Below, piece after piece: positions 9,307-52,647 of a DNA stretch of 64,000 nucleotides. Below the pieces are notes generated by a model. The model searched no databases, was not told the origin of the DNA, and saw nothing but the letters and a program-made list of their open reading frames with translations. Source of the DNA: Halobacteriovoraceae bacterium (lineage in GTDB: Bacteria > Bdellovibrionota > Bacteriovoracia > Bacteriovoracales > Bacteriovoracaceae); the NCBI GenBank assembly GCA_963719505.1, contig CAVRCF010000005.1:288001-352000 (forward strand). The letters run 5' to 3'. The position numbers were made by a program, and so were the translations under genes. Position 1 is the stretch's first letter. Each line of letters opens with the position of its first letter.

Positions 9307-9503
9307 TAAGATCCCTAGGAAATATTTGATCGAATATCTGTTCGGCAAAAAATATGATAAAAGTGAGGACCAAATTCAAATAAAACTTGAAAGGTCTGGT
9401 ATAGTTAGCCAAACTCTGTCATTGATCTTTTCTTAATTCTTAATCCACAAAAAAATTTGAATTATTATTGGGACACAATTTGTTGTCACTTGATAGTATG
9501 ATC

Positions 9504-9713: not shown

Positions 9714-9738
9714 AAATTCTCCTTTTGATATTTTTATA

Positions 9739-11667: not shown

Positions 11668-11687
11668 ACGTACCTCTTTTTGTTCAA

Positions 11688-36427: not shown

Positions 36428-38641
36428 ATGGCCAATATTTTTTCTAGGTTTGTCCGCTATATCGGAATCGTTCTTATCTTTATTTTTAGTGCAGCTTCAA
36501 TCTTCTTTAGCTTCATTGAAAGAACTATTCCTGAGGGTCAACCCCTGAAAGAGACAATTCAATATGCCTCATTTTTTGAAAATAGATTCTATGACTTAAG
36601 AATGCAGTCGACCTTGTCCCCTGAGAATCAAAATAATGAGATCGTCTTGATTAAAGTTGATGATGAGTCTTTACAAAAGATTGGATCATGGCCAGTTAAT
36701 CGGGAGACATGGGCCACAATGATCAATAATTTAGGTAAGTTTGGCGCCAAGGTCGTGGCATTCGATGTTATGTTTCCCGAGGAAGTGAAAAGTTGTGGAG
36801 AGGTGTCTCCTGATGATAGCTTTGCTAAAGCTATTGAAGACTTTCAACTTCAGGCCAATAGAAGAATTATTTTGGCCTACACCACTCAAGATGAAAGCAC
36901 GAGAAACTCCTTTTATGACGAGATGCCAGAAGATCTCTATACCTTTATCCTGGACTCAACTCAAGTGAGTGAGAATGCCTCGCTAGTGGTGAAAAAGGTC
37001 GAAAGGCATACCTACCCCATTCAAAAGCTGCTAAGTGCATCTCCTGATCTTGGTTTTATCAATATGTTAGAAGATGCTGACGGCGTTTTCAGAAATTATC
37101 AGATTGTCTCAAACATCGATGGTGTTTTATATACACCCTCTTTAGGTCTTAGAGCTTTTCAGGCCTATCAAGAGACAAACCCTAAGCTTAATATCGATAG
37201 TACCGGCTCCGCACAGCTTCTTATTAAAGATGACAAAATCTTTATTAATAACAGAGGGGAAACCAAAATTCGCTGGCTAGGGGCCAGTAGAAACTTTAAG
37301 GATATTTCTCTTCATGAAGTTGTCGACCCAAATGCTGATCAGGAAAAATTAGAGGCATTTTTTAAAAACAAAATAGCCTATGTGGGATCGACGGCAACGG
37401 GTGCACACGACTTAAGGAATACACCTGTTGACTCTCAGATGCCTGGAGTCTACGCCCACATGAACATGACAAGTATGTTAATGAAGAATTTTTATTATAA
37501 GGATCTTTACAAGTCGATAAAAATTTCTTTTCTCTTTCTTATCGTGGGTACTGTCGTTTTAATTGTGACCATGTTTTTAAAAAATGCCTTTGTGGATTTA
37601 TTTATGACTATTCTTTTAGTCGTTACCATCCTCTTTATTGATTACACCTATCTTTTAGAGTCTGGTTATGAAGTGAGAATGTTCTTTGTCATTTTTAATA
37701 TCCTGGCCACTTATTCGTGGGTCACCCTTTTGAACTTTAACAAAGCCAATGCGGAGAAAAAGCAGATTAAAGGAGCATTTGCCCGTTACGTAGCCCCAAC
37801 CATTGTCGATGAGATGCTAGAGAATCCTGACAAGTTAAAGGTCGGAGGACAGAGAATGGACATCACCTGTATGTTCTCAGATGTGCGAGACTTCACTTCC
37901 ATTTCTGAACAACTGTCGGCCAACGAACTTGCAAAGTCGCTTAACCGCTATATGGGAGAGATGACCGATATTGTTTTTGATACCAATGGAACTCTAGACA
38001 AGTATATTGGAGACGCAATTGTGGCTTTCTGGGGAGCACCTATTGATATCGGTGATCATGTTACTGCGGCAGTTGACGCCTCTGTAAAAATGCTAGAGGC
38101 CCTTCCAGCGATAAATGATGAATTTAGAGCGGCTCAGTTACCAGAGTTTAAAATAGGAATCGGTCTCAACTCTGGGGAATGTAATGTTGGAAATATGGGC
38201 TCAGATAAAATTTTTGCTTACACGGCCCTTGGAGATACGATGAACTTAGGAGCCCGACTGGAATCAAGTTGCAAGTACTATGGAGCACAGATCCTTATCT
38301 CTGAATACACATTTGAGCGAATGGATAAGAGTCGTTTTATCACTCGTCTCATCGATAATGTGGTCGTGAAAGGGAAAGTAAAGCCCGTAAAGGTTTACGA
38401 AGTCCTTTATCGTGGACATCATCTATGGGAGAAAAAGGATTTAATGTCATTGTTCTCTACGGCCTATCAAAATTTTCTCGATAGAGATTTTGAAGCTGCC
38501 CAAAAAAACTTTGAGCTTGTGCTGGCAAAATCTCCTGATGATAAGTCATCTCAAAGATTATTGGAGCTGACTTTAGAATACAGACAAAATCCACCACCAA
38601 GTGATGTTGATCATTCTCTTAATACGAGGACAGATAAATAG
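36428..38641 (+). CDS. CHASE2-sensor class III adenylate/guanylate cyclase
   Basis: CHASE2 (GSWP, FDVMF, DADGVFR, PGVYAH), three TMs, FSDVRDFT, DKYIGDA, GD.MNLGARLE and VKGK. Confidence 0.93.
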   Translation: MANIFSRFVRYIGIVLIFIFSAASIFFSFIERTIPEGQPLKETIQYASFFENRFYDLRMQSTLSPENQNNEIVLIKVDDESLQKIGSWPVNRETWATMINNLGKFGAKVVAFDVMFPEEVKSCGEVSPDDSFAKAIEDFQLQANRRIILAYTTQDESTRNSFYDEMPEDLYTFILDSTQVSENASLVVKKVERHTYPIQKLLSASPDLGFINMLEDADGVFRNYQIVSNIDGVLYTPSLGLRAFQAYQETNPKLNIDSTGSAQLLIKDDKIFINNRGETKIRWLGASRNFKDISLHEVVDPNADQEKLEAFFKNKIAYVGSTATGAHDLRNTPVDSQMPGVYAHMNMTSMLMKNFYYKDLYKSIKISFLFLIVGTVVLIVTMFLKNAFVDLFMTILLVVTILFIDYTYLLESGYEVRMFFVIFNILATYSWVTLLNFNKANAEKKQIKGAFARYVAPTIVDEMLENPDKLKVGGQRMDITCMFSDVRDFTSISEQLSANELAKSLNRYMGEMTDIVFDTNGTLDKYIGDAIVAFWGAPIDIGDHVTAAVDASVKMLEALPAINDEFRAAQLPEFKIGIGLNSGECNVGNMGSDKIFAYTALGDTMNLGARLESSCKYYGAQILISEYTFERMDKSRFITRLIDNVVVKGKVKPVKVYEVLYRGHHLWEKKDLMSLFSTAYQNFLDRDFEAAQKNFELVLAKSPDDKSSQRLLELTLEYRQNPPPSDVDHSLNTRTDK

Positions 38642-38642
38642 T

Positions 38643-39338
38643 CTAGAGTCGAAAAAGAAGAGAAGAGTTTAACCCAAATTCTTGTCTGGTGATATCGAGA
38701 TCAACATAGGTATTTTCTTGATCATAAATCTCTAAATAGAGATCAAAGATAAGAGAGAACTTACTGTTTAATTTATACAAAAGATCAGTTGAGGCTTTAA
38801 GAACAAAACCTGTATCAAAATCATCATCACCACTGATGAGAATACCCGCTGCAGCTCTTGCGTCTAGCCTCATTTTCTCACCCTTATAGTAGTTAAATCC
38901 ATAACCACCAAGGATTCCAATATTATCATACGTCACATCAGTTAATTCGCTGCTGTCATTGTTCTTAGCACCAACACCGAGTTCTTCTCTTTGAAAGAGG
39001 TCGATAAAAAGATCACCAAAGCTATAGGCCTTTAAAAAAGTAGAACCGATAGAAAAAGAGTTATAATCGTCTATCTCTCCCCCGTCATCGAATTCAGAAA
39101 AAGAATAGTTTCTCATATAAACATAAGGTGAAATTTCAATACCTGAATCAGGACAATAAATAATCCAATTTCCTCTGATTGATAGACCTGAGTCTGAGAC
39201 TATGTCGAGCTCATCTGAGCCTCTTTGACCATTGAGAACGAAGGAATCAAAACCGGCACCAACTTTAAAAACATCTTTTATACAATCAGCTTGAGCGCTA
39301 AAGGAAATAAGAGAAATAAGAAAAATAATTTTAAACAT
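38643..39338 (-). CDS. Putative outer-membrane beta-barrel protein
   Basis: Signal peptide from ATG 39338, overlapping the FecR-gene stop; amphipathic strands; ends in LLFRL. Confidence 0.6.
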   Translation of the reverse strand: MFKIIFLISLISFSAQADCIKDVFKVGAGFDSFVLNGQRGSDELDIVSDSGLSIRGNWIIYCPDSGIEISPYVYMRNYSFSEFDDGGEIDDYNSFSIGSTFLKAYSFGDLFIDLFQREELGVGAKNNDSSELTDVTYDNIGILGGYGFNYYKGEKMRLDARAAAGILISGDDDFDTGFVLKASTDLLYKLNSKFSLIFDLYLEIYDQENTYVDLDITRQEFGLNSSLLFRL

Positions 39339-40341
39339 CAAAGTACCTATCATATGCATTTTTATCTTTTGAACTCTTTTTTGGAACAATATTCGACCGA
39401 TTGGCTTTTTTAATAATTTCTTTCATTTTACTTGATGCATTTTTCTGAACCACAAGCCCTTTATTTTCATCCACGACGACACCTTTAGGTGGAATATAGG
39501 TGCCATTGTCATCAGCTGTTCCCAAAAGTTTATCACCCTCGACTGGAGGAACATAAACTCCTTTGTCAAAGTCTACAAAGCCAAGAGATGCCGTCTTGTT
39601 GTCCTCTAAATTGGCCGTAAATTCTTTTTCCAAGATTTTTGCCTCAGCGTTAATTTTGGACATCTCTGATTTTCCAATATCCGTCTTGGTCGCCCCGAGG
39701 GAATCGTCTTTTTTCATCAAAAGAAACTGCTTAGGATTTATCTTAACCTTTTGCGTTTTTTTAATATCAGATTCTGCAACTCTAAAAAGATCACCTTTAA
39801 CAACGGAGGTCTGATTTGTTTCTAAATCTTTTTTGAGTTCCTTAATTGATTGAGTTTCTCCAATTTTAGATTTTTTCATATCGACTTTTCCCTCATAAGT
39901 AAGAAGAGAAGTCTTTTTAGCTTTTGGTGCAAAGGAGACTTGAAATTCTGTACCACGAACTCCCATCGTTGCAGAGTTAGTTTTGACGAGAAATTTTTTG
40001 TCGTTATTTTTATTTTTATCAACAAGGGCCCTGATCTTTCCAGAAACAAGGTTCACTAAAGAGGTTTTATCTTGCATATCCATATCCAAAACCACTTTTG
40101 AATTTGGTCCCACTGTCAAAAATGAAGAGTTGATATATTTAATTCTAGCAAAGCCCTTACCATCGACATAAACGGATGTGTCTTTGACCAGTTTAGACTT
40201 TTTCGTCAATAACTGGGCTTTCTTGGAGCCTGGGGCCAAGAAAGTTACCTTTCCCTTCACGATAAGCGCGCTGGCAATCTGGGGCATTGCAAAAGAGACA
40301 GAGACATAACTGAGACATAGTAAACAAATTAATTTTTTCAT
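39331..40341 (-). CDS. Secreted FecR-domain protein
   Basis: VGPNSKV, LVSGKIRA, TNSATMGVRGTEF and YEGKV. Confidence 0.88.
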   Translation of the reverse strand: MKKLICLLCLSYVSVSFAMPQIASALIVKGKVTFLAPGSKKAQLLTKKSKLVKDTSVYVDGKGFARIKYINSSFLTVGPNSKVVLDMDMQDKTSLVNLVSGKIRALVDKNKNNDKKFLVKTNSATMGVRGTEFQVSFAPKAKKTSLLTYEGKVDMKKSKIGETQSIKELKKDLETNQTSVVKGDLFRVAESDIKKTQKVKINPKQFLLMKKDDSLGATKTDIGKSEMSKINAEAKILEKEFTANLEDNKTASLGFVDFDKGVYVPPVEGDKLLGTADDNGTYIPPKGVVVDENKGLVVQKNASSKMKEIIKKANRSNIVPKKSSKDKNAYDRYFDV

Positions 40342-40499
40342 AATAAAATAGTAACCGTTATTTCGTATTAATCAATGTTAAACGCTAGGGAAAATACTTC
40401 ACAGATGCAGCGCAACACTTCTCAGAAAACTATTAGAGATATGCCTAGTCGAAAAATTTCAATTTTGCTAAGATCTGTGCAATAGAGAGGGAAATTTAT

Positions 40500-41966
40500 A
40501 TGCTGTATAAATCTAAAGATGAAATCACTAAGTCTTATGACGTAATCGTTATAGGATCTGGCCTTGCCGGTATGACTGCGGCCAATAAGATGGGTAAAGA
40601 CGGATTAAAAGTCTTACTACTTGAAGCACATAATAAACTTGGTGGTTTTGCGACTTGGTTTTATAGAAATAAAAAAGATCACGTCTTTGATATCTCTTTG
40701 CATGGTTTCCCCTTTGGAATGAAAAAAACTTGTCGCAAGTACTGGAACAAAGAGATAGCAGACCATATTGTTCAGTTAAAAGATGTAAGATTTGAAAATC
40801 CTCAGTATAGTCTTCAGTCGACTTTTACCCGTGAGGATTTTACCGACAAACTGGTCAATCACTTTAAAGTCGAACTAGATACGGTTAATGCCTTTTATGA
40901 TTTTGTTGAATCCATGAATTTCTACGACGACCAATCCATGACAAACAAAGAACTCTTTCAAAAGTTTTTTCCCGACAGGATCGATATTGTGAGATTTCTG
41001 ATGGAGCCGATTGTTTATGCTAACGGCTCTACCCTTGATGATCCCGCAATCACTTATGGAATTGTTTTTTCTAATTTTATGAGTAAAGGGGTCTACACCT
41101 TCAAAGGTGGAACCGACGAGATCATAAAAATGATGAAAGAGGAGCTTCTTGCCAACGGTGTGGATATAAAAATGCACGCCAAAGTAGACGAGCTCATAAT
41201 TGAAAACTCAATTTGCAAAGGGGTTATCTTAAAAGGAAAACCCATTCATTCAAAAAGTGTTCTCTCCAATGCAAATCTTAGAACCACCATCTTAAAAATG
41301 GCAAAAGCTGAAAATTTTAGTCCTAATTTTATTGAAAAAGTAAAAAAAGTAAGAATGAACTCATCGTCTTGCCAAGTTTATATTGGTATCAAGCCTGGAG
41401 AAACTATTCCCCATATCGGAGATCTTGTTTTTACCTCCACTCATCCAAGCTTTGATTCACAAGCCCTTGTCGGGTTTAACATCACAAGTAGAACCTTTAG
41501 TGTCTATTATCCAGAGGGGCGACCTTATGATGAAAAACCAAGATATGCCATTGTTTCATCGACTAATGCAAACTTTGATGACTGGGCCAACCTCGATGAT
41601 GAAACCTATGAAATTGAAAAACAAAAAATGATTGATGAGACGATTGAATGTTTAGAAAAGTATATCCCAAATATTAAAACTAAAATTGATTTTCTTGAAG
41701 CGGCGACACCAAAAACAGTTCAAAAGTTTGTCCACCACGAGAAAGGCTCTTCTTTTGGAACTAAGTTTGAAGGTTTAGAAATTAGCATGGGTCTTCATAA
41801 AGAAATCGCTGGTCTCTTTCATGCCGGTAGTGTTGGAATTATCATGAGTGGATGGCTTGGAGCTGCAAATTATGGAGTCATTCAATCCAATGAAATAAGT
41901 AGTTATATTTATCATCTAGAAAAAAATAAGGAACAAAATATTGTTCATGGAGAAATGCATGTCTAA
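40500..41966 (+). CDS. CrtI/phytoene-desaturase-family FAD oxidoreductase (1)
   Basis: YDVIVIGSGLAG, EAHNKLGG, FDISLHGF, ATPKT and C-terminal GLFHAGS. Confidence 0.88.
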   Translation: MLYKSKDEITKSYDVIVIGSGLAGMTAANKMGKDGLKVLLLEAHNKLGGFATWFYRNKKDHVFDISLHGFPFGMKKTCRKYWNKEIADHIVQLKDVRFENPQYSLQSTFTREDFTDKLVNHFKVELDTVNAFYDFVESMNFYDDQSMTNKELFQKFFPDRIDIVRFLMEPIVYANGSTLDDPAITYGIVFSNFMSKGVYTFKGGTDEIIKMMKEELLANGVDIKMHAKVDELIIENSICKGVILKGKPIHSKSVLSNANLRTTILKMAKAENFSPNFIEKVKKVRMNSSSCQVYIGIKPGETIPHIGDLVFTSTHPSFDSQALVGFNITSRTFSVYYPEGRPYDEKPRYAIVSSTNANFDDWANLDDETYEIEKQKMIDETIECLEKYIPNIKTKIDFLEAATPKTVQKFVHHEKGSSFGTKFEGLEISMGLHKEIAGLFHAGSVGIIMSGWLGAANYGVIQSNEISSYIYHLEKNKEQNIVHGEMHV

Positions 41967-42699
41967 CTTTAATGGCCAAACAGTTATTGTCACTGGCGGA
42001 ACAAGAGGAATTGGGAGAGGAATCGTTGAGAGTTTTCTAAAAGATGGAGCCAGTGTCATTGCAACTTATGCAAGAAACGATCAAGCAGCTCATCTTTTTA
42101 AAGAAGAGATGATTCAATTTGGAGAGAAGTTAACTCTTAAGAAATTTGATGTTTCAAAACTGTCTGAAGTTGAAAGCTTCTTCACAGAAATAGATAATAA
42201 CGGCTCAACGATTGATATATTGGTTAATAATAGTGGAATTAGACAAGATAACCTCACGGCCAGTATGACTGAAGGCCAATGGGATACCGTTATGGATATC
42301 AACCTGAAAGGAACTTTTAATATGAGTCAAAAAGCTGTTCTTCATATGATGAAAAACAGATACGGGCGTATCATTAATATTTCTTCGATTGGCGGAGCAC
42401 TAGGACTTCCAGGACAAGCCAACTATGCCGCTAGTAAAGCAGGACAGGTAGCTTTAAGTAAGGTTCTAAGTAAAGAAGTCGCCAAAAGAAAAATCACAGT
42501 CAATAATATCGCCCCGGGCTTTATTGAAACAGAACTTTTAGCAGACCTTCCAGAGGAACAAATTAAAGAGTATAAAAAATCAGTGCCGATGAAACGCTTT
42601 GGAACAGTAGAAGAAGTTGCAAGTGCGGTAAAATTTCTTGCAAGTAAAGAGGCAAGTTATATTACTGGTACAACAATTGAAATATCCGGTGGTCTGTAG
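41959..42699 (+). CDS. fabG: 3-oxoacyl-ACP reductase
   Basis: TGGTRGIG, NNSGI, GQANYAASK and APGFIET. Start at ATG 41959 after GGAG. Confidence 0.9.
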   Translation: MSNFNGQTVIVTGGTRGIGRGIVESFLKDGASVIATYARNDQAAHLFKEEMIQFGEKLTLKKFDVSKLSEVESFFTEIDNNGSTIDILVNNSGIRQDNLTASMTEGQWDTVMDINLKGTFNMSQKAVLHMMKNRYGRIINISSIGGALGLPGQANYAASKAGQVALSKVLSKEVAKRKITVNNIAPGFIETELLADLPEEQIKEYKKSVPMKRFGTVEEVASAVKFLASKEASYITGTTIEISGGL

Positions 42700-43121
42700 T
42701 GAATGAAGAAATAAAAAAACGAATTCCCCAAAGAGAACCCTTTCTCTATATCGAAGAAATTGTCTCAAAAGAAGAAAGAACAATAACCACATCTAAAAAG
42801 ATTACTGGTGAAGAGGATTTTTTTAAAGGTCACTTTCCAGGTGATCCGATCATGCCCGGTGTTCTTATTTGCGAGGCGGCCTTTCAAACCGGAGCACTCC
42901 TTATGAGCTATATTATGGAAGGTGGAATAACCGGAAAGACTGCGGTCGTCAGTCGCATTCAATCCGCAAAATTTAAAAATATGGTTCGCCCTGGAGATGA
43001 ACTCCAAATGACTGTCAGCTTGGTCGATCAATTAGAAAATGCGGCTTATCTGAAAGGTAAGGTGACAACAAATGGAAAAACGGCTCTTCAAATTGAGTTC
43101 GCCTGTACACTAGTAGGTTAA
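42699..43121 (+). CDS. fabZ: 3-hydroxyacyl-ACP dehydratase (FabZ-like)
   Basis: PQREPFL and FFKGHFPGDPIMPGVLICEA. Confidence 0.88.
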   Translation: MNEEIKKRIPQREPFLYIEEIVSKEERTITTSKKITGEEDFFKGHFPGDPIMPGVLICEAAFQTGALLMSYIMEGGITGKTAVVSRIQSAKFKNMVRPGDELQMTVSLVDQLENAAYLKGKVTTNGKTALQIEFACTLVG

Positions 43122-43122
43122 A

Positions 43123-43911
43123 ATGGATTTTAAAGACAAATGGATATATATTGCGGGAATTGCGAATAAAAAAAGTGTGGCTTTTCACACCGCAAAGTCG
43201 CTTCAAGAGCGCGGTGCCAAGCTTATTTTATCAGCTCAGAACCAAAAAAATCTAGAACAAATAAACAAAATTTTTCCTGACTCCCCTTCTTTTATTCTTG
43301 ATGTTGAAGATGAAAGTCAGATGAGTGAATTAAAAAATAAAATATCCACCTTTACTCAAAAAATAGATGGCTTTCTTCACTCTTTGGCCTTTGCCAATTT
43401 TTCAGAGGGACCAAAGCCTTTTCATGAAACCAAAAGATCAGATTACCTTCAAGCTTGTCAAATCAGTAGTTTTTCATTTATCGAAATGAGTAATTCTCTG
43501 AAGTCCCTTTTCTCTCAGAACGCTTCGGCAGTAACAGTCTCTATATCAAGCACCAAGGCCACAAGTTACGGCTACCTAGGTCCTATAAAAGCCATGCTTG
43601 AAACGAGTGTGTGCTACCTTGCAAAGTCCTTCTCTGAATTTTCTAATGTCCGATTTAATTCAGTTGGAGCTGGACCGCTTAAGACTTCCGCCAGCGCTGG
43701 GATTCCAGACTATATTGAGAACTATCTCTATTCCGAGCAACTAACTTTAAGGAAAAAGTCTCTTCAAACTCAAGAAGTTGCCAATGTTATCTGTTTTCTT
43801 CTCAGCGATCTTTCAAGTGGGGTTAATGCCACAAACCAAATTGTTGACTGTGGAATGAGTAGTAATTATTTTGACCAAAACATTGTCAAAGGTTTTGCCA
43901 AGAACCTTTAA
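43123..43911 (+). CDS. fabI: Enoyl-ACP reductase (divergent FabI-like)
   Basis: GIANKKSVA, HSLAFA, Y......K (YGYLGPIK) and AGPLKTSASAGI. Confidence 0.8.
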   Translation: MDFKDKWIYIAGIANKKSVAFHTAKSLQERGAKLILSAQNQKNLEQINKIFPDSPSFILDVEDESQMSELKNKISTFTQKIDGFLHSLAFANFSEGPKPFHETKRSDYLQACQISSFSFIEMSNSLKSLFSQNASAVTVSISSTKATSYGYLGPIKAMLETSVCYLAKSFSEFSNVRFNSVGAGPLKTSASAGIPDYIENYLYSEQLTLRKKSLQTQEVANVICFLLSDLSSGVNATNQIVDCGMSSNYFDQNIVKGFAKNL

Positions 43912-44915
43912 AGTCTTCGAAGATCCATCGATTCATTTCTTTGCTTAAAAGTTTTGATCAGACCCTGCTCTATTGAGATTGTCGGCTCGTAATCAAAATC
44001 TCTATTTGCTTTTGCATGGGAAAAATAATGACTTTTCGCCAACTGACAGGCCACAAATCTAGTCATCGGTGGTTCGGGTTTAATAACCCCTAAAGCGCTG
44101 AAGACTTTCTCAAAAAGCCAACCTAGATTGTAAGCCGATCTAAAACTTATACTACTTTCAACTAAATCCTCTCCAGAAGACACAAGAAGGGTGTTTATAA
44201 ACTCCCAAAGCTTCACCGGTCTCTCCTGACCTATAAAATATGATTGACCCGATAAGGAGGAATCATTTAAAAGTTTCTCAAAAGCCTTAACGTGAGCGAG
44301 AGCTGCATTTTCAACAAAAATAACGTCAACTAAATTTTCACCATCACCGACTTGTTTTAACCTTCCAGCTTTTGCCTTTTGGACAAGTCTCGGAAGAATA
44401 TGGGGGTCACCTGGTCCCCAAATTAAATGGGGACGCAGCGCTAAAGCTTTAAATGAGTCTGAAGCTGCTTCCAAAACATATTTTTCAGCATTGGCCTTAG
44501 TTCGGCCATAATGATTGAGAAACTTCTTTGGATAGTTAAGCGTCTCATCACCGAGAATAATATCTTCTTTTTCAAAGACGACACTAGGACTTGAAGTATA
44601 AATAAAATATTGAATACCAATTTCTTTGCAGGCATCCACAAGTTGAATTGTTCCTACCTCATTGGTCTGAACAAAGTCTTCTTCTTTACCCCAAACGCCT
44701 GCGATAGCTGCCACGTGAAAGACAGCATCTATCCCTTCAAGGGCTGATTTAATAGAATCTACGTCTCTAAGTGATCCTTTTCTTGTCTTGATACCCAAAT
44801 GATCAAGTTCGCTATGGTGGTGACGAGAAAAATTAATAACGTCATATTTCTCAACGAGAATTTTACAAATATTTAATCCTAAGAACCCGCCGGCCCCAGT
44901 TACTAAAATCTTCAC
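43908..44915 (-). CDS. oleD: 2-alkyl-3-oxoalkanoate reductase OleD
   Basis: TGAGGFLG, HVAAIAGVWG, YTSSPSVVF, YGRTK and LRPHLIWGPGD; ole gene context. Confidence 0.88.
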   Translation of the reverse strand: MKILVTGAGGFLGLNICKILVEKYDVINFSRHHHSELDHLGIKTRKGSLRDVDSIKSALEGIDAVFHVAAIAGVWGKEEDFVQTNEVGTIQLVDACKEIGIQYFIYTSSPSVVFEKEDIILGDETLNYPKKFLNHYGRTKANAEKYVLEAASDSFKALALRPHLIWGPGDPHILPRLVQKAKAGRLKQVGDGENLVDVIFVENAALAHVKAFEKLLNDSSLSGQSYFIGQERPVKLWEFINTLLVSSGEDLVESSISFRSAYNLGWLFEKVFSALGVIKPEPPMTRFVACQLAKSHYFSHAKANRDFDYEPTISIEQGLIKTFKQRNESMDLRRL

Positions 44916-46540
44916 TTATCCTCCAGCTGTTGAGCCCAGCGTGTGAGAGCTAATCTATCTATCTTTATATTATGCCTAACATCCACAGGCAGCTTTTTAT
45001 GCAAATAGTATTCAAATTGAAAGTTTTTAAATTGGCTCTCAATAACAATAGTCTTTAATTCGCTATCAAAACTCTCTTTTTCTCTCGCTGTCATTGTCGT
45101 CTTGCCATCAACTCGCTCAATAACAAATTTTGCTTTATTAGCATTTTTAATAAGAGCAGACTTTCTAATCATAGAGTGCTGATTTATAACCGTTTCAAAA
45201 AGGATAGGAAAAAACTTTTTTGAGCCGATGCTAAAGAAGTGGGATGAGCGACCACAAAACCAAAGATTTCCCTCGTCGTCAAAATAACCCATATCCCCCA
45301 TGCGATGATAGAAGTTGTTCTCAATATGAATTTTTGCCAGTTTCGTTTTCTCGGGCATATTAAAATAGCTTCTCGTTGTGACTTTACTGCTGACAATAAT
45401 CTCACCAATCTCACCCACTGGAAGTAGCTCAAAGTTATCTTCAGTGATTTCACCATCTACAAATTTTACGATCTTAACATCTACTTCTGTAATAGGTTTT
45501 CCCAGACAGGTTCCATTACCTTCAAGGATAGTCTGACCGAACTTCTTTAAAATTTCTTTACCACTAATATTACAAACAGGAAGACACTCTGTAGCACCAT
45601 AAGGAGTATAAGTTGTCCCAGCAGGAAGAATCTTTTTAAACTTCTCATGTAAAGACACTGGAATAGGTGCGCCAAACATGACTAGATACTTTACCGAAGG
45701 CAGTGTGATACGATTTTCTAAACAATGATCTGCCAGTTTTGTCCAAATCGCAGGAGAGCCAGCAACAAAGGTTGCACCTTGATCCATGATATTTTTAAGA
45801 AGTTTTTGAGGATTACTCATCCCTGGTTTGGATGGATTCATATCTGGAATAACACTTGTCATTCCCATGCTCAGTGTAAAAAGAGCAAAAAGAGGAAAAC
45901 CCGGAATATCGATATCATCATGTGTTAAGCCGAAAGACTTTTTTAACAAAGAGGTTTGTTCGATAAAAATCTCGTGGGAATAGACGACACCTTTTGGAAC
46001 GCCCGTACCACCACTGGTAAAAAGAATAGCAGCCATATCATCTTTATCCATAACAACTGAGTCAAAAAGTGAAATCTCAGAATCAATATGACTTGTCATG
46101 CTTTTAGAGAAAACTGAAATTTTACTTGTACATAAATACAATTCTATTGATTTAAACTTTTCTCTAAATATTCTCGCAATAAGATGAGCAGCCGGAATAC
46201 CAAGAAGAACTCGGGCTCCAATGGATTCAATTGAGCTTAAAACATTTTTTAATCCCATACCGGGATCAATAAGAACAGGGATTGCTCCAATCTTAAAAAG
46301 CGCAAAGGTATAAGCACAAAAATCAACTGAAGGCTTAACAAAGACTAAAACCTTATCACCTTTTTTTACCCCTGCCTTTTGAAAGCGATGAGCAAACTGA
46401 TTGATTCTTTTTTCAAGATCGATAAAGGTGTAGTGCTCATAAAAATAGTGGAGACTAAACAGTGAACAGCGGCTCATCACCACAGCTCGTTTATATGGCA
46501 TCTCAATCGCCTTATCGGTTATTTGATCGGCAACATTCAC
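44912..46540 (-). CDS. oleC: Olefin beta-lactone synthetase OleC
   Basis: IDPGMG, LFTSGGTGVPKG, TPYGATE, HRMGD and PVDVRHNIKIDR. Confidence 0.9.
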   Translation of the reverse strand: MNVADQITDKAIEMPYKRAVVMSRCSLFSLHYFYEHYTFIDLEKRINQFAHRFQKAGVKKGDKVLVFVKPSVDFCAYTFALFKIGAIPVLIDPGMGLKNVLSSIESIGARVLLGIPAAHLIARIFREKFKSIELYLCTSKISVFSKSMTSHIDSEISLFDSVVMDKDDMAAILFTSGGTGVPKGVVYSHEIFIEQTSLLKKSFGLTHDDIDIPGFPLFALFTLSMGMTSVIPDMNPSKPGMSNPQKLLKNIMDQGATFVAGSPAIWTKLADHCLENRITLPSVKYLVMFGAPIPVSLHEKFKKILPAGTTYTPYGATECLPVCNISGKEILKKFGQTILEGNGTCLGKPITEVDVKIVKFVDGEITEDNFELLPVGEIGEIIVSSKVTTRSYFNMPEKTKLAKIHIENNFYHRMGDMGYFDDEGNLWFCGRSSHFFSIGSKKFFPILFETVINQHSMIRKSALIKNANKAKFVIERVDGKTTMTAREKESFDSELKTIVIESQFKNFQFEYYLHKKLPVDVRHNIKIDRLALTRWAQQLEDK

Positions 46541-46543
46541 AAG

Positions 46544-47419
46544 CTAAACTCTTTCCAAAAAGTCTTTTATATTTGATATAACATCATCAGCTTCGTCCTC
46601 TAGAATATAGTGACCAGCATCCTTATAATATTTATAATAGGCATCGGGATAAATCTCCTGCCATTTTCTAAAAAAGACATCGTTAAAACAAAAATCTTTT
46701 CCTCCCCAAAGAATAATTTTTGGACAGTTGAGTTCTTTAAGCTTATCTTCAATCTTCTTTAGTTCTTGAAAGCTTCTATGATCTTTTTTAAGGGGAATGT
46801 CTTGGACAAATTCTGCAACTGCTATCCGGTTTTTAGGTGAGTCGTAGGGAAACAAATATCCAGCTTTAATAGTGGGACTAAGCTTCTTTTTTGAAGCCAT
46901 AAATGTCGCGGGCCTTGCGAAAGCGTTAAAGTTTTTAACAATAAACTTTCCAAATAATTTATTTTTACATAGACCAATAGTAAATGGAATCCTATTGATA
47001 TGAAAAGCCGCTGTGTTGAGTATAACGATATTCTTTATAAGTTTAGGGTGCCTTGTCGCGAGACCGAAACCTATAGCACCCCCCCAGTCATGAACAATTA
47101 GAGTTATATTTTTTAAGTCTAAAAATTGAACTAAAGTCTCAAGATTATCGATATGATTTTTTAAAGTATATTCATAATCTTGGGGTTTGTCAGAGAGACC
47201 ACAGCCAATATGGTCGGGCACAATAACACGGTGACTATGTTCAAGCTCTCTTGCCACATTTCTATAGTAAAAAGACCAAGTAGGATTGCCGTGAACCATG
47301 AGGACAGGGTCACCTTCACCTTGGTCGATATAGTGATATTGATTGGAGCTGATATCCAAATAATTTGAGGCGAAAGGATAAAGATTTTTTAGTTCACTAT
47401 CGAGGGTTCTTTTTAACAT
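46544..47419 (-). CDS. oleB: Beta-lactone decarboxylase OleB (haloalkane-dehalogenase-like)
   Basis: HGNPTWSF, DHIGCGLSDKP, HDWGG, DFCF and AGHY. Confidence 0.9.
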   Translation of the reverse strand: MLKRTLDSELKNLYPFASNYLDISSNQYHYIDQGEGDPVLMVHGNPTWSFYYRNVARELEHSHRVIVPDHIGCGLSDKPQDYEYTLKNHIDNLETLVQFLDLKNITLIVHDWGGAIGFGLATRHPKLIKNIVILNTAAFHINRIPFTIGLCKNKLFGKFIVKNFNAFARPATFMASKKKLSPTIKAGYLFPYDSPKNRIAVAEFVQDIPLKKDHRSFQELKKIEDKLKELNCPKIILWGGKDFCFNDVFFRKWQEIYPDAYYKYYKDAGHYILEDEADDVISNIKDFLERV

Positions 47420-48451
47420 TATATTTTTACTCCAAGCATAACTGAATGCAGACCACTACCAATACCCAACAGAGCCACATTTTGATTTGATAAAAGTCTT
47501 TTACTCTCCATCGCTTTAACAAAGGTAAGGGGAAGAGCAGCCGAGCCGGTATTTCCATATTGATCAAAAGTTTTGTGGTCCTTCAAAATATCTAAGTCTA
47601 ATTCCTTGTACATTAAATCTCTGTGAGCACTTCCTACTTGGTGACAGATCAGATGATCAAAGTCTTGCTCCTTGAGAGACAACTCTTTTTGCAGCCCAAT
47701 CCAAGTCTCCTTCGCAAGTTTTACACCAGCGTGTAAAAGTTCTTCAGACTCTGTTTGCATCATTAAAGAGTCCGCATTGCCTGATCCCGTACAAAGAGCA
47801 CTGGCCTCACTATCAGTTAGAGAATACCCACCAAGAAGCTTGTGTCCATTTTGACAAAGGTCTTTGTGACTTAAAATAAATGCGACACCACAGGAGCCTA
47901 TAGTAAGATTTGCAATAAACTTTTTTATCGATTTTCTGGTCAAACTCATGTCTGAATTTAACTTATTTATTGTCTCCTCTATCAGAGGTCCCGAGTTCTC
48001 ACCCGTGACAATAAGAGCGGTTTTTATCGTGCCATTTTCGATCATATCAGCGGCGACAGTCATCGCATTAACAAAGCCCAAACAAGCATTGGAGAGATCA
48101 AAACTCATGCACTGAGGCTTTAGCTTAAGGTTGTTGTGGATACTTGAGGCCGTTGAAGGCTCTAGAAAATCTCGACAGACACTTGAGTGAATTAAAAGGT
48201 CGATATCAGAATGTTCAAACTGTGATTTCTCCAACGCTTTAATTGCAGCACCAGTTGCAATTAAACTGGGTTTAGTTCCCACAGGCCAGCATCCCTCTTT
48301 TCTCTATAGAGGTTTGAAGCTCCAAACGACCAAAGGGAAGCTTAAGTCGCTCATAAACTGGGGCCAATCTAGTTTCCATATCATCAGAGGACAAAAAGAT
48401 CTCAGGATCATGATATGCATAATTTTCAATGACAACATTTGTATATTTCAT
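47419..48451 (-). pseudogene. oleA: OleA acyl-CoA condensing enzyme, frameshifted as sequenced (+1 nt near 48293-48295)
   Basis: ATG 48451 gives MKYTNVVIENY...RLKLPFGRLELQTSIEKRG then a stop at 48272. The alternate frame continues CWPVGTKPS...RDFLEP, SNACLG, HQVG and GNTGS. The 1033-nt span equals 344 codons plus 1 nt. Confidence 0.85.
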
Positions 48452-49846
48452 TTAATTTTCCATTAAACCGTGAAGGTTCGCCATTGAAATGCCTGACAGC
48501 ATTGATCCCACAATTCCTAAAAATCCTTGATCAGTTCCAATGATAAATAAATTTGAAAATTCTGTTCTTCCATCTCTTGTCTTATCTGGGGAGCCATAGA
48601 CTGTGCCATCAAAATGAGAAGTATAACGCTCTACAGTTGTAGGGCTAAAAACGTCATAAAAGTGAACTTTTGAATCAAACTTGGGGTTTAGCTTTTTTAG
48701 AAGGTTTAAAGAGTGTTCGTATACAACTTCTTTTTCTTCTTTATATCTTTCCTTCTCCAAGGCCTTCCATTTGTCATAATTGGCCATAAAGGTCACTCTA
48801 TAAGTCCCCTCACCTTCACGGTTTTCTCTTTCATAATTATCAGGGCAACAAATAACTGCCGAACTTGAATCAAAGAGGGTCTCTGAACGTGAGTAATCAT
48901 ACTTATTAGAATTATTATAAAAAACAATTGTTGGATCAAATTCTAGCGGTTTGGATTCAGTAACGATGATGGTCTCCATAAAAGAGAGTTTTCCAACGCT
49001 GACTTTGTTTGAAGCTTCAACACCAATAAGTTTTAACGTTTCAGGATATCCCATTGAGGAGAAAATTTTATCACACTCATAAGTATTCTTACTGGTTTTC
49101 ACGTGGGTAATTTTTGAAGGAGAGCAAATAATATTCTCAACACCTTCTCTGAAGTGTAGCTGCCCACCAAGATCTGAGTATCTCTTTAGAAGCTTATCAA
49201 TAATCGTTCGAACCCCACCTTCAGGTCTAGAAAATCCTTCCATATAAATTGATTTAAACATAATAACGAATTGAGCAAAATCCATATCGTGCTCCCAAGC
49301 GGAACCGTAGATAAGAAGTGGACATATAATCATTTCAATAAGGTCGTCGTTTTTAATATACTTTTGAAGGACAGATCTTGAAGAGCTATATCCTTGATCA
49401 AGATTGAGCTCATCAAATTCATCAATCGTGCTCAGAAGTTTTTGAAAATTTTCTTTTTCTTGTGGAAACTCTCGATTGACTTCTTCGACAAAGAGCTCAA
49501 ACTCGTTGCTAAATTTAATTTTATGTTCTGGAAAATCGATTGAAGAGTATGTTTGCTCGTGCAACTGAAACTCGTCATAAGAGAAACGAAGCTGTTTTAG
49601 AAGTTTAGTAAAAGGCTTTTTTCTTTCACCTTTTTTGGCAAAGTTGGTTAATGCGTGAAGTCCCACGTCAAACTTTCTGACTCCACCATATTCTTTGTTG
49701 CGTCTTTGGTAATAGGAATTAAGGCCCCCGGCAATCGAGTGTTTTTCAAGAATGAGAACCTTTTTATCAAACATCGCCAGCCTGATACCCGCTGCAAGAC
49801 CACTCATACCAGCCCCCACAACTATGGCATCATACTTCGTCGTCAT
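48452..49846 (-). CDS. CrtI/phytoene-desaturase-family FAD oxidoreductase (2)
   Basis: YDAIVVGAGMSG, EKHSIAGG, FDVGLHAL, FSPTT and GTDQGFLGIVG. Confidence 0.88.
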   Translation of the reverse strand: MTTKYDAIVVGAGMSGLAAGIRLAMFDKKVLILEKHSIAGGLNSYYQRRNKEYGGVRKFDVGLHALTNFAKKGERKKPFTKLLKQLRFSYDEFQLHEQTYSSIDFPEHKIKFSNEFELFVEEVNREFPQEKENFQKLLSTIDEFDELNLDQGYSSSRSVLQKYIKNDDLIEMIICPLLIYGSAWEHDMDFAQFVIMFKSIYMEGFSRPEGGVRTIIDKLLKRYSDLGGQLHFREGVENIICSPSKITHVKTSKNTYECDKIFSSMGYPETLKLIGVEASNKVSVGKLSFMETIIVTESKPLEFDPTIVFYNNSNKYDYSRSETLFDSSSAVICCPDNYERENREGEGTYRVTFMANYDKWKALEKERYKEEKEVVYEHSLNLLKKLNPKFDSKVHFYDVFSPTTVERYTSHFDGTVYGSPDKTRDGRTEFSNLFIIGTDQGFLGIVGSMLSGISMANLHGLMEN

Positions 49847-49847
49847 T

Positions 49848-50093
49848 TTACTGCATTTTTGGCGTGAGATAAGTCACACAGCCTGCCAGTGTTGCAAGAT
49901 GTGGATAATCTTCACTTGGAACTTCAACTTTATGACGTTTCCTAAGCTCCATGACGATATCTAAAAAGTCCATTGAATCTAAATCAAGTTGATCTCTTAA
50001 AGATTCATTTTCATCAATTCCTGATACGTCCTCATCTGGCGCCACGTCTTCAATAATATCTAAAACAACTTTTTTTACTTCTTCACTAGTCAT
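49848..50093 (-). CDS. Acyl carrier protein
   Basis: LDLDSMDFLDIV phosphopantetheine site; start at ATG 50093, 81 aa. Confidence 0.92.
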   Translation of the reverse strand: MTSEEVKKVVLDIIEDVAPDEDVSGIDENESLRDQLDLDSMDFLDIVMELRKRHKVEVPSEDYPHLATLAGCVTYLTPKMQ

Positions 50094-50124
50094 AATTACC
50101 TTTTCAAATTTATTTATATTTCTT

Positions 50125-51360
50125 TTAGCTGTGTTTCTTAATAATGACAGAGGAGTTAATCCCAAGCATACCAAAAGAGTTATTGAGAATAATTTCAATA
50201 TTATCTTTTCTCTTTGGTTCATTTAAAACGAGATTATTCATGGTGCATTCGGGGTCAAGATTATCGACATTAATTCCTGGATGAATAATTCCATCTTCGA
50301 AACTTAAAAGGTTACCCGCAAGTTCCAAAGCGCCAGCAGCCCCCATGGTGTGTCCAATATGACCTTTCGTAAAATTCACGTATGTCTCTTTGCAGTCATT
50401 AAAAACATTTTTGACGGCATTGAGCTCATTAATATCTCCAGCTTGAGTTCCAGTCGCATGCATATTAACGATATCGATATCTTCTTTTTCAATTTTCGCT
50501 TTTTTTAACGCCTTTAAGATACATTCCGACTGTCTTTCAGTATTGGGAAGAACAAAGTCAGTTGCATCTGTATTGACAGCATACCCTAAAACTTCTCCAT
50601 AGATTTTTGCTCCTCGAGCGATGGCGTCTTCTCTTCTTTCAAGAGTATAAATACACCCACCCTCACTGATGACAATTCCATTTCTATCAATATCAAGTGG
50701 TCTTGAAGCTTTTGTTGGGTCTTCGTGGGAAGCAAGGGCCCCTTGAGCTGCAAAGGCTGCAAAGATACCAAAGGTTTGTGCCGACTCAGAGACTCCTCCA
50801 GCTAAAGCAAAATCAACTTCATCTAAAAGCAGTTGCTGAACACCTTGGATAACACCCATATTCCCACCGGCACAAGCTGAACCAATAGTGTAATGAGGTC
50901 CCGTGATTCCCAAGTTAAGGTTAACCTCTCCCGCGGGAGAATTGGCAACGGTTCTTGGATTGTGATGGTGTGACCAAAAAGTAGTGTCTAAATTATTTTG
51001 ATGAAGAAGAAAGATCTCCTCTTCAGTCTCTACGTTTCCATGCTCTGTAATTCCAATATAAGTTCCAACTCGAGACTTATCTATTGAACTAAAATCTATC
51101 TTTGAATCTACGATGGCTTCATTTGCTGCATAAATAGCAACACTTCCTGCTCTCGTTCCTCTTCGTCTCGTTTTCTTTTTCTGATATTTATATTCATCAA
51201 AATCACAAAGACCAGCAGGATGCTTGCCCATATAGCGGATTTCCTCGAGTGTAATTCCCGATTTTCCCTCTATCAGATTTTGGCGAAACTCACCTAGCGT
51301 ATTACCATTTGGCGCAGTTAAACCTATCCCTGTAATGACAATTCTATGGTCTTTATTCAT
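50125..51360 (-). CDS. fabF: Beta-ketoacyl-ACP synthase (FabF/FabB-like)
   Basis: VITGIG, SAC (catalytic Cys), HATGT, KGHIGHTMGAAG and NSFG. Confidence 0.88.
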   Translation of the reverse strand: MNKDHRIVITGIGLTAPNGNTLGEFRQNLIEGKSGITLEEIRYMGKHPAGLCDFDEYKYQKKKTRRRGTRAGSVAIYAANEAIVDSKIDFSSIDKSRVGTYIGITEHGNVETEEEIFLLHQNNLDTTFWSHHHNPRTVANSPAGEVNLNLGITGPHYTIGSACAGGNMGVIQGVQQLLLDEVDFALAGGVSESAQTFGIFAAFAAQGALASHEDPTKASRPLDIDRNGIVISEGGCIYTLERREDAIARGAKIYGEVLGYAVNTDATDFVLPNTERQSECILKALKKAKIEKEDIDIVNMHATGTQAGDINELNAVKNVFNDCKETYVNFTKGHIGHTMGAAGALELAGNLLSFEDGIIHPGINVDNLDPECTMNNLVLNEPKRKDNIEIILNNSFGMLGINSSVIIKKHS

Positions 51361-51562
51361 ATAGCCTCAGTTTATAAAATTTGTGACCTATTTTTATAAT
51401 TTATAACCGATAAAATCAATAAAAATCAATAATACAAACGATTTACAAGCATTTTACTCGTCGCGCAGCTGCGATGCGCAAACTTTAAAAATAAATACTC
51501 TGGATTTTAAAGCAAAGTTAATTATAATTGTGAAAACAAAAAACCTAACAAAAGGATATGTA

Positions 51563-51952
51563 ATGGAAAGCATCATAGTTGTCAGCAAGGTAAAAAAATT
51601 CATAAAAGAGAAATATGGGTTTAATACATCCTCAAACTTTTTTGATCCAATTAACAAAGATCTTTATGAGGCCCTAGATAAGGCAAGTGAGCATACAAAG
51701 TCTACAGACCGAAAAACTGTCATGGGACGTGACTTTAACTTCTATATCGATAAACCTGAAGTGGATGTCGTTTTAGTTGTCGCAAGTAAAATTAAATCCT
51801 ATGTTAAAGAAACTCACGGGCTCAGTACCTCAAAACAAGTTATGGAACAACTTACTGTAAGAATTCAAAAGATGATTGAAATGGCTGCTCAAAAAGCAAC
51901 TGAAGCTAAAAGAAAAACAATTATGGATAGAGATATAGAAGATCTTATTTAA
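51563..51952 (+). CDS. Bacterial histone, tandem (doublet) histone fold
   Basis: Two repeats, IIVVSKVKKFIKEK..NTS...RKTVMGRDF and VLVVASKIKSYVKE..STS...RKTIMDRDI; ATG 51563 follows AAGGA. Confidence 0.88.
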   Translation: MESIIVVSKVKKFIKEKYGFNTSSNFFDPINKDLYEALDKASEHTKSTDRKTVMGRDFNFYIDKPEVDVVLVVASKIKSYVKETHGLSTSKQVMEQLTVRIQKMIEMAAQKATEAKRKTIMDRDIEDLI

Positions 51953-51990
51953 GGTCCTCTCAATCCATTCATCAAATAAAAGAGACAGTT

Positions 51991-52647
51991 GTGGTTGAGA
52001 ATCTGAACATGGACTTTTCAAAAAGAGTTGTTATTAAAACAAACGACTTAGATTGGATCCAGTCTCCCAGTTCCGGTATCAATCGCAAACCTCTTGAACG
52101 TCAAAATGCAGAAAGCGGAAGGACAACTTCGATAGTGGAGTATCTTCCCGGTTCGAAATTTAAAACTCATTCCCACCCAGGGGGTGAAGAAATTCTAGTG
52201 TTAGAGGGAGTTTTCTCCGATGAAACTGGAGACTACCCTGCAGGAAGCTATCTTCGAAATCCCCCAGGTTCATCTCACGCCCCTTTTAGTGAAAAAGGGT
52301 GCAAGCTTTTTGTCAAACTTCACCAGTTCGATTTAGAAGACAATCAAAGCGTCAAATTTAACACCAAGGAACAAGCTTGGAGAGCAGGACATGGCCAATT
52401 AGAAGTGATGCCACTTCACTCGTTTAAAACTGAAAGCTGTGCTCTAGTAAAATGGCCTAAAGGTGAAAAATTTCTGCCCCATTCCCATTTTGGTGGCGAA
52501 GAGATCTTTGTCCTTGAAGGCGTTTTTAAAGACGAAAATGGGGATTATCCAAAAGGCACCTGGATCAGAAGTCCCCATCTATCGACTCATCATCCTTTTG
52601 TCGATGAACAGACTATTATCTATGTTAAAACAGGACATTTAAACTAA
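51991..52647 (+). CDS. ChrR-like double cupin protein
   Basis: Two HxHxGGEEI.VLEGVF.DE.GDYP.G repeats. Confidence 0.9.
   Translation: MVENLNMDFSKRVVIKTNDLDWIQSPSSGINRKPLERQNAESGRTTSIVEYLPGSKFKTHSHPGGEEILVLEGVFSDETGDYPAGSYLRNPPGSSHAPFSEKGCKLFVKLHQFDLEDNQSVKFNTKEQAWRAGHGQLEVMPLHSFKTESCALVKWPKGEKFLPHSHFGGEEIFVLEGVFKDENGDYPKGTWIRSPHLSTHHPFVDEQTIIYVKTGHLN

Follow-up and report, generated by a model that had tools for sequence, protein, structure and literature searches.

The enzymes OleA, OleB, OleC and OleD, described from Xanthomonas campestris, Stenotrophomonas maltophilia and Shewanella oneidensis, join two acyl chains head to head into a long-chain olefin. In Shewanella and Photobacterium, the C31:9 polyene comes from 16:4 chains carried on acyl carrier protein (ACP), and OleA appears to draw these acyl groups directly from the Pfa synthase's ACP domains (PMC6463001; papers are cited here for particular passages rather than as wholes). 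Reviews attribute long-chain polyenes such as C31:9 to Pfa synthase plus OleABCD (PMC4882568). Here we analyse a 64,000-nucleotide stretch of DNA, hereafter the window (positions 288,001 to 352,000 of contig CAVRCF010000005.1, assembly GCA_963719505.1, a Halobacteriovoraceae bacterium of the family Bacteriovoracaceae), in which 11 genes within 40500-51360 place oleABCD together with a fatty acid synthase (FAS) of type II and two FAD enzymes resembling CrtI and CrtISO. These two enzymes are given the working names FADox1 (flavoprotein 1) and FADox2 (flavoprotein 2). The kit is real, conserved and found in several phyla; its parts are ordinary and their combination is uncharacterised.

A supply route of this kind has been suggested before. 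Desulfotalea psychrophila makes C31:8 and C31:9 hydrocarbons without a known pathway to polyunsaturated fatty acids, and its type II FAS (FASII) clusters have the phytoene-dehydrogenase-like genes DP2405 and DP2406 adjacent; from such clusters in Desulfotalea and Kuenenia, Rattray et al. proposed a flavoenzyme-extended FASII route in 2009 (PMC2649909). The Kuenenia homologues do not replace CrtI, and the relevant passages of Javidpour et al. (2016) give no further result (PMC4790861); a 2026 review, in the part that concerns these genes, continues to give the phytoene-dehydrogenase-like enzyme the status of a proposal (PMC13459092). The idea is thus not new but a suggestion of 2009 that was never tested. 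The first-pass annotation of the window was right that no biochemical characterisation exists, yet it offered the idea without a source when the hypothesis was already in print (PMC2649909). Elsewhere, the OleA of Halobacteriovorax marinus was active when expressed in Escherichia coli (Smith et al. 2020), and section 11 of that paper, on gene context, makes no mention of Halobacteriovorax or its gene neighbours (PMC7064751). The passages of Vigneron et al. (2023) that report oleC in metagenome-assembled genomes (MAGs) of Nitrospina and of the Planctomycetes-Verrucomicrobia-Chlamydiae (PVC) group leave the module unmentioned (PMC10176705). A literature search of main texts, supplements lying outside it, returned no paper in which, for Bdellovibrionota or Nitrospinota, a type II FAS and CrtI-like module is tied to oleABCD, that of 2009 coming nearest, and neither a biochemical characterisation nor a description of the fused 11-gene arrangement.

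Compared with the classical OleABCD systems, the window holds the same four enzyme types in the order oleA-B-C-D, with catalytic motifs retained and OleA above the cut-off of its family profile, NF006720. It differs in that the ole genes share an operon with a private ketosynthase, ACP and flavoenzyme, facing a second operon of flavoenzyme, ketoreductase, dehydratase and enoyl reductase; moreover, OleC and OleD are below equivalog cut-offs (415 against 850 and 354 against 580 bits), and oleA is frameshifted in this assembly. The likeness to the Pfa systems is one of principle, in that a secondary lipid synthase, separate from the housekeeping FAS and often linked to ole genes, hands a special ACP-bound chain to OleA (PMC6463001). 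Here, in contrast, the proteins are dissociated and of type II, no PfaA-type multidomain protein was found in the genome, and FAD enzymes stand where Pfa has FabA-like dehydratase/isomerase domains. Closest in composition are the extended FASII clusters of D. psychrophila (DP1860, DP2405, DP2406) and Kuenenia stuttgartiensis (Kuste3336, Kuste3607), which combine FabF, ACP and FabZ with amine-oxidase-fold 'phytoene dehydrogenase' genes and are proposed to make polyunsaturated chains independently of oxygen, D. psychrophila producing C31:8 and C31:9 without pfa (PMC2649909). Radical-SAM (S-adenosylmethionine) or SAM-methylase genes would be expected with clusters of that kind; the 11 genes here gave no radical-SAM or methylase Pfam match, and the flanking genes scanned no radical-SAM match; the physical link to oleABCD also sets the present cluster apart.

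Results

Conservation of the gene set

FADox2 has thousands of close homologues, and 216 representative clusters at E<=1e-30. Synteny was examined in 30 related loci from public genomes. The triad FabF-ACP-FADox2 stands in 28 of them, all but the truncated locus L001 and the 3.3-kb contig L013; in as many, FabF and FADox2 flank an ACP that aligns over 62-81 residues. In 17 loci oleA is directly downstream of FADox2, followed by oleB, oleC and oleD where the locus extends far enough; all 17 are labelled as Bdellovibrionota lineages save one record labelled Sulfitobacter. FADox1, with or without FabG, FabZ and FabI, occurs in 16 of the 30, and the block FADox1-FabG-FabZ-FabI is convergent, as in the window, in seven and on the same strand in three. 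Given these counts for the triad, oleA and FADox1, the arrangement is not chance.

The order is different outside Bdellovibrionota. Five Nitrospinota loci carry a single operon, FabF-ACP-FADox2-FADox1-FabG-FabZ-FabI, with no adjoining ole gene, and in two Planctomycetota loci oleA, oleB and oleC (with oleD in L025) are divergent from FabF-ACP-FADox2-FADox1-FabZ-FabI. Since the flavoenzyme genes sit with the ACP and FAS operon even where no ole gene is near, action on acyl-ACP is favoured. The FADox1 orthologues of both phyla are 56-59% identical to the FADox1 of the window, against 23% between FADox1 and FADox2, so that the pair is an old duplication passed on jointly. In seven loci from three phyla, no thioesterase, acyl-CoA ligase, acyltransferase, phosphopantetheinyl transferase or other conserved accessory gene stands beside the module, which fits a direct hand-off from ACP to OleA; the flanks are unrelated housekeeping genes that differ between lineages. 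For the homologue P0117, look-alike clusters are labelled Bdellovibrionota, Verrucomicrobiota, Planctomycetota, Acidobacteriota and Bacteroidota, and serve as leads only. The statement in the first-pass annotation that PVC-group bacteria hold similar sets is borne out by the Planctomycetota and Verrucomicrobia among the related loci and clusters; the host itself belongs to Bacteriovoracaceae, not to that group.

Two of the sampled loci have peculiarities of their own. In L012 (a Bacteriovoracaceae MAG), oleC and oleD are about 4.7 kb apart (7114-11849), the insert encoding an AI-2E transporter, a YD-shell fragment and a beta-lactamase-family protein. The Sulfitobacter record, L017 (JBLHVN010000001.1, 'MAG: Sulfitobacter sp.'), carries a Halobacteriovorax-type 11-gene cluster with match coordinates nearly those of L015, and its OleA coordinates (C1:441846-442697) are identical to those of OleA in G138, a genome of the window's own family; the label looks wrong.

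Co-occurrence with ole genes

OleA was counted at E<=1e-40 and genome tables were compared by hand. FADox2 is present in 52 of 251 Bdellovibrionota genomes, all 52 of which have OleA, as against 10 of the 199 others. These 52 are made up of 49 of the 51 other genomes of the window's family, two of 20 of another family and the present genome, and the two family members without FADox2 are the same two that are without OleA. Among Planctomycetota, FADox1 occurs in 36 of 201 genomes, with OleA in 35 of the 36 and in 25 of the remaining 165; the sole miss is a genome whose FADox1 match is on contig 491. Nitrospinota have FADox1 in 95 of 120 genomes, OleA accompanying it in 79 of the 95 and occurring in 7 of the 25 others. 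The FAS-flavoenzyme module is nearly phylum-wide there (genomes G001-G005 and G491-G593), and the ole genes occupy at least three separate loci, OleA and OleB being adjacent and OleC-like and OleD-like genes lying elsewhere. The association of module and ole genes is consistent, and short of statistical proof. CrtI-like genes in the company of fab and ole genes, first noticed in this one window, therefore recur in three phyla.

Cluster layout and gene assignments

The 11 genes lie in two convergent operons, with all coordinates matching the list of open reading frames base for base. Assignments were made by Pfam and NCBIfam profile searches of the window proteins, bit scores being read against model cut-offs, and they agree with the genes, positions and converging operons of the first-pass annotation; the shared TTAA at 43908-43911, where the stop codons of fabI and oleD overlap, is likewise seen in the sequence. 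Catalytic motifs, read from the translations, are kept in all 11 genes; their assignment to catalytic residues follows the literature, for OleA that on X. campestris.

The plus-strand operon opens with FADox1 (40500-41966, 488 residues; Pfam Amino_oxidase, NAD_binding_8 and FAD_binding_2). The FabG-like 3-oxoacyl-ACP reductase (ketoreductase, KR; 41941-42699) scores 293.7 bits with TIGR01830 (cut-off 297.75) and matches adh_short_C2 at E 1.8e-60; it has TGGTRGIG and YAASK (YxxxK) motifs. The FabZ-like 3-hydroxyacyl-ACP dehydratase (DH; 42699-43121; NF000582 113.9 bits, cut-off 113; FabA-like domain E 1.1e-22) keeps the His of HFPGDPIMPG and a downstream Glu. Last comes a divergent FabI-like enoyl-ACP reductase (ER; 43123-43911), with a Y-x6-K motif (YGYLGPIK) and 156 bits against the cut-off of 362 for the best NCBIfam FabI model.

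The minus-strand operon begins with the FabF-like elongating ketosynthase (KS; 50125-51360), recognised by its N- and C-terminal ketoacyl-synt domains and by TIGR03150 (301 bits, cut-off 493.75), with the motifs GSACAGG, HATGT and GHTMGAAG of the Cys-His-His triad. The dedicated ACP (49848-50093; 81 residues from the ATG at 50093) has the DSM serine motif, a PP-binding match at E 2.9e-8 and at most 40 bits with NCBIfam ACP models (cut-off 66), so that FabF, FabI and ACP of the cluster are all below equivalog cut-offs. FADox2 (48452-49846, 464 residues; Amino_oxidase E 7.3e-12 over residues 14-456) comes next and, like FADox1 (residues 19-24), has a GxGxxG motif. The four ole genes then run contiguously from 48451 to 43908. 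OleA, a thiolase (47419-48451), reaches 319.3 bits with NF006720, the OleA-type beta-ketoacyl-ACP synthase III family (cut-off 285), and retains the Cys, His, Asn and Glu motifs SNACLG, CHQVG, GNTGSA and FLEPS. OleB, an alpha/beta-hydrolase beta-lactone decarboxylase (46544-47419), has HDWGG and GHY motifs, an Abhydrolase_1 match at E 1.6e-29 and 179 bits with a haloalkane-dehalogenase-type model (cut-off 241). OleC, the AMP-binding olefin beta-lactone synthetase (44912-46540; motif TSGGTGVPKG), gives 541 bits with NF006754 (cut-off 478), and 415.4 and 410.4 bits with the olefin beta-lactone synthetase models (cut-offs 850 and 900). OleD, the 2-alkyl-3-oxoalkanoate reductase (43908-44915; motifs GAGGFLG and YGRTK), gives 353.9 bits with each of NF042422 and NF042423 (cut-off 580) and 3Beta_HSD at E 2e-55. 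With scores under the NCBIfam equivalog cut-offs, OleC and OleD are divergent members of their families. The G+C content of the cluster is similar to that of its surroundings. A scan of 40200-52000 for promoters and terminators gave 27 promoter-like and 9 terminator-like sites, and shuffled sequences 30.9 and 9.0, hence no excess.

The first-pass annotation overlooked a one-base (+1) frameshift that splits oleA near 48290-48300. Reading from the start codon meets a TAA stop (48272-48274) after 59 codons (48451-48275); the C-terminal 287 codons, in a different frame (47419-48282), account for the 319.3 bits with NF006720 and cover its profile positions 58-337. In alignment with L001, the closest related locus, there is one extra base in the stretch encoding ...IEKRG/CWPVGT.... 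The open frame here is 294 residues long; full-length OleA matches in related genomes have 333-415 residues and are all whole, a range that excludes three shorter matches running to the contig end. A same-genus genome, G476, has an intact oleA of 342 residues.

Several neighbouring genes deserve mention. Divergently upstream of the cluster fabF, at 51530-51952 on the plus strand, is a 140-residue protein of two internal repeats with weak histone-fold matches (CBFD_NFYB_HMF 23.6 bits, cut-off 21.4; Histone 24.3 bits; DUF1931). Five related loci (L008-L012) have a counterpart there with 49-54% identity. The protein could be a histone doublet of bacterial type or else act as a local regulator. 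Directly upstream of the cluster on its other side, 36428-40341 encodes a CHASE2-adenylate/guanylate cyclase (737 residues), a FecR-domain protein and a 248-residue protein without clear family; the FecR protein and its neighbour also adjoin the cluster in L001, and the cyclase does so in L002. Further away, at 25342-25920 (plus strand), this predatory bacterium encodes a 192-residue protein with an ADP-ribosyltransferase exoenzyme domain (PF03496, E 7.7e-14).

Genome background

The genome comprises 3.69 Mb in five contigs with 36.8% G+C, and is 83.5% complete by markers. Its affiliation with Bdellovibrionota is borne out by named homologues and loci, which are those of Bacteriovoracaceae and Halobacteriovoraceae. 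A housekeeping fabH-fabD-fabG-(acpP)-fabF set lies at C1:1044263-1048404, with its FabF intact and its FabD at 288.5 bits (cut-off 260.9), and further FabI- and FabZ-like genes are found elsewhere. The cluster copies share only 29-38% identity with their housekeeping counterparts: 38% for FabG (C1:1045846-1046598), 32.6% for FabF, and 30.5% between the FabI-like protein and that encoded at C1:651351-652094. The cluster fab genes are therefore a second, dedicated set and not the genome's only FAS.

No PfaA-type synthase (TIGR02813) was found in the genome, the best match scoring 184.8 bits against a cut-off of 1010.1, and the phytoene/squalene synthase domain PF00494 had no match in this 83.5%-complete assembly, which makes a carotenoid role unlikely. 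The absence of pfa and phytoene synthase genes, at first stated for the window, thus holds genome-wide in profile searches. The nearest ketosynthase-acyltransferase match, about 32 kb away at C5:369364-374379, was considered as Pfa and rejected, being a polyketide synthase-nonribosomal peptide synthetase (PKS-NRPS) hybrid with an aminotransferase domain.

This hybrid belongs to a locus some 24-35 kb beyond the cluster (C5:363784-375105 of genome G000, the present one; L039 5784-17105), where a 1671-residue ACP-KS-AT-ACP-aminotransferase protein is followed by a 1859-residue C-A-PCP-TE NRPS protein, with an Sfp-type phosphopantetheinyl transferase alongside. It looks like a lipopeptide-type cluster, and the transferase could also serve the ACP of the olefin cluster. 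A second small cluster, at C3:115761-119339, encodes a FabH/OleA-like thiolase, a FabG-like reductase and an OleC-like AMP-ligase, which are 24%, 25% and 24% identical, respectively, to their olefin-cluster counterparts.

The flavoenzymes

Both flavoproteins score far under the cut-offs of the carotenoid enzyme families. Against carot_isom (cut-off 586.9), FADox1 reaches 106 bits and FADox2 97.5; against crtI_fam (TIGR02734, the CrtI/phytoene desaturase family), 70 and 46.5 bits, so that neither attains the cut-off of 238.1. The best NCBIfam matches of FADox1 are carotenoid isomerase, CrtD and CrtI. AlphaFold models are confident (mean pLDDT 94.3 for FADox2 and 81.6 for FADox1), and the best fold match of both is 4REP, a gamma-carotenoid desaturase (FADox2, TM-score 0.74 at 18% identity; FADox1, 0.69 at 17%). 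Two uncharacterised oxidoreductases, CrtI and plant PDS come next, identity across structures being 13-18%; 4DGK gives TM-scores of 0.59 and 0.55 for FADox2 and FADox1, respectively. By sequence, the best match in the PDB is weak (E 5.6e-10). Sub-cut-off scores, weak PDB matches and confident models with the 4REP fold together indicate that FADox1 and FADox2 are CrtI-fold enzymes that belong to no CrtI subfamily characterised so far. Behind the FAD-binding fold, both alignments show a DxxLH motif without variation (L63 and H64 for FADox2; L67 and H68 for FADox1). A heterodimer test of the pair returned a score of 0.00, which counts neither for nor against pairing.

With CrtI, CrtD and CrtISO (4DGK, 4REP; TIGR02734, TIGR02730) the two proteins thus share the GxGxxG motif and the overall fold (TM-scores 0.59-0.74 for FADox2 and 0.55-0.69 for FADox1). 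They differ in identity (13-18%), in scores (46-106 bits against cut-offs of 238-587) and in partners, which here are FAS and ole genes instead of crt genes, in a genome in which no phytoene synthase was found. Enzymes known to have the CrtD/CrtI fold work on the C=C bonds in long lipid chains, and CrtISO isomerises carotenoids with reduced flavin. Other flavoenzymes add or shift acyl-chain double bonds without di-iron desaturases: UfaD, which is CrtI-like and desaturates fatty acyl chains in the pathway to furan fatty acids, has a phospholipid-bound substrate, and FabX of Helicobacter is a dehydrogenase/isomerase of the FMN TIM-barrel type. These are precedents by description only, and their gene contexts differ from that of the present cluster.

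Proposed pathway and alternatives

We lean towards reading the 11 genes as one self-contained pathway to a long-chain, probably polyunsaturated, olefin. The FabF-like KS, its own ACP, the FabG KR, FabZ DH and FabI-like ER would form a type II synthase elongating an acyl chain on a private carrier, malonyl loading being left to housekeeping FabD. The two anciently diverged CrtI/CrtISO-fold flavoenzymes would work on the chain while ACP carries it, within elongation cycles or between them, and would introduce or shift double bonds, either through dehydrogenation or through an FAD-dependent isomerisation of enoyl intermediates, thereby replacing the role of FabA-type domains in Pfa synthases; selected cycles would escape the FabI-like reductase. 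The flavoprotein genes keep company with those for ACP and FAS also in genomes that have their ole genes elsewhere, and this argues for action on the ACP-bound chain. OleA would then take two acyl-ACPs directly and condense them head to head, OleD would reduce the 3-oxo acid, OleC would close the beta-lactone and OleB would decarboxylate it to the olefin, 16:4-like chains giving a C31:9-type polyene. We infer the flavoenzyme substrate, the unsaturation, the chain length and the direct hand-off from ACP; the derivation of C31:9 from two 16:4 chains is modelled on the literature. Of the tailored-substrate reading in the first-pass annotation, the part that stands draws on the dedicated fab set, the failure to find Pfa in the genome and the co-occurrence of the flavoenzymes. 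A bolder claim, which we hold tentatively and with clearly less confidence than the pathway as a whole, is that the seven-gene module may be the first polyunsaturated fatty-acyl synthase of dissociated (type II) make, with its two paralogous flavoenzymes as candidate FAD-dependent enoyl-ACP isomerases or dehydrogenases that would set cis double bonds and need neither oxygen nor FabA-type domains.

A number of observations weigh against this pathway. The module is present without an OleA match in 16 of the 95 Nitrospinota and one of the 36 Planctomycetota genomes. The co-occurrence counts come from related genomes and so overstate independence; in Nitrospinota, moreover, both traits are near phylum-wide, and many genomes are small and may be incomplete. 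With an ER in the module, a good deal of the chain may be saturated. The flavoenzymes, at 13-18% identity to solved structures, are remote from all characterised enzymes, which leaves desaturase, isomerase and reductase open as candidate activities. Their orthology to DP2405/DP2406, which rests on the published description, and to the Kuste genes is putative. The support from the 51 genomes of the family, none of which has a PfaA match at E<=1e-100, is limited by the lack of a positive control in that search, and the literature searched holds no lipid or hydrocarbon data for the organism or its family. Finally, the oleA frameshift of this assembly means that the strain has an inactive pathway, unless the extra base is an assembly error.

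One alternative places the flavoenzymes after condensation: the synthase would supply an ordinary chain, saturated or mono-unsaturated and of set length, and the flavoenzymes would desaturate, isomerise or saturate the finished olefin or beta-lactone. CrtI, CrtISO and RetSat act on finished polyenes, and the CrtI-family enzymes closest in fold (4REP, 4DGK and 5MOG) are ones that we take to act on free, membrane-embedded hydrocarbons; FADox2 is directly upstream of oleA, FADox1 is at the far end beside the ole block, and a full KR-DH-ER set could make saturated chains. In Nitrospinota and Planctomycetota, however, the flavoprotein genes stand between ACP and FabG/FabZ/FabI with the ole genes elsewhere or divergent, ACP and FADox2 are adjacent in 28 of 30 loci, and a second complete FAS for ordinary chains would duplicate the housekeeping set, so that we find this order of events improbable. 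A conjugated product is, in our estimate, quite improbable too. In that case the flavoenzymes would be true CrtI-type desaturases extending conjugation, and the product a pigment-like or antioxidant polyene rather than the methylene-interrupted C31:9 type, as the fold match to a carotenoid desaturase (4REP) might suggest and as the remark of Rattray et al. that such enzymes would place double bonds beside existing ones would allow (PMC2649909). Yet the NCBIfam similarity of both flavoproteins is greatest to carotenoid isomerase (106 and 97.5 bits), not to CrtI/CrtD desaturases, Kuste3336 and Kuste3607 of Kuenenia failed to replace CrtI in a lycopene assay (PMC4790861), and the D. psychrophila hydrocarbons were identified with the C31:8 and C31:9 known from psychrophiles and planctomycetes, in a paper that did not determine double-bond positions (PMC2649909).

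That the end product is a beta-lactone natural product instead of an olefin, as the first-pass annotation had also allowed, is very unlikely indeed: OleA, OleC and OleD alone do give beta-lactones in lipstatin-type and nocardiolactone-type clusters (PMC7064751), but OleB is part of this operon with its nucleophile and His motifs (HDWGG, GH) present, and it is kept in all 17 loci with oleA after FADox2 except where the contig ends first. Of more weight, though still unlikely in our view, is that the cluster in this strain is a decaying remnant, the frameshift being real and no olefin being made, whatever the pathway does elsewhere. The extra base relative to the closest relative, the stop at TAA, and an open frame of 294 residues where relatives have 333-415 and G476 has 342, all fit such decay. 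Against it, OleA keeps all its catalytic motifs and its 10 partners in the cluster are intact, which points either to an assembly error or to a change of very recent date; among the remaining window genes scanned against Pfam, none appeared split. A general assembly error may still be the source, although the housekeeping fabF is intact and no other scanned window gene looks split. Nor is the marker completeness of 83.5% a sign of indel errors, since the same-genus genome is similarly low (87%).

Discussion

Returning to the proposed pathway, the window shows the supply module once suggested for other bacteria physically fused to oleABCD, and the module is spread over 49 of 51 other Bacteriovoracaceae, 95 of 120 Nitrospinota and 36 of 201 Planctomycetota genomes. 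If the proposal is correct, oxygen-independent double-bond formation on acyl-ACP would be new enzymology, and it would be relevant to the unsolved question of what the homologous 'phytoene desaturase-like' genes of ladderane clusters do. Abundant marine nitrite oxidisers and predators would join the sources of biogenic alkenes. The 11 genes would also provide a kit of soluble enzymes for engineering polyunsaturated hydrocarbons.

A type II polyunsaturated synthase, if it exists, would explain C31:9-type hydrocarbons in organisms without Pfa. It would further predict polyenes in nearly all Nitrospinota, in about a fifth of Planctomycetota and in Bacteriovoracaceae.

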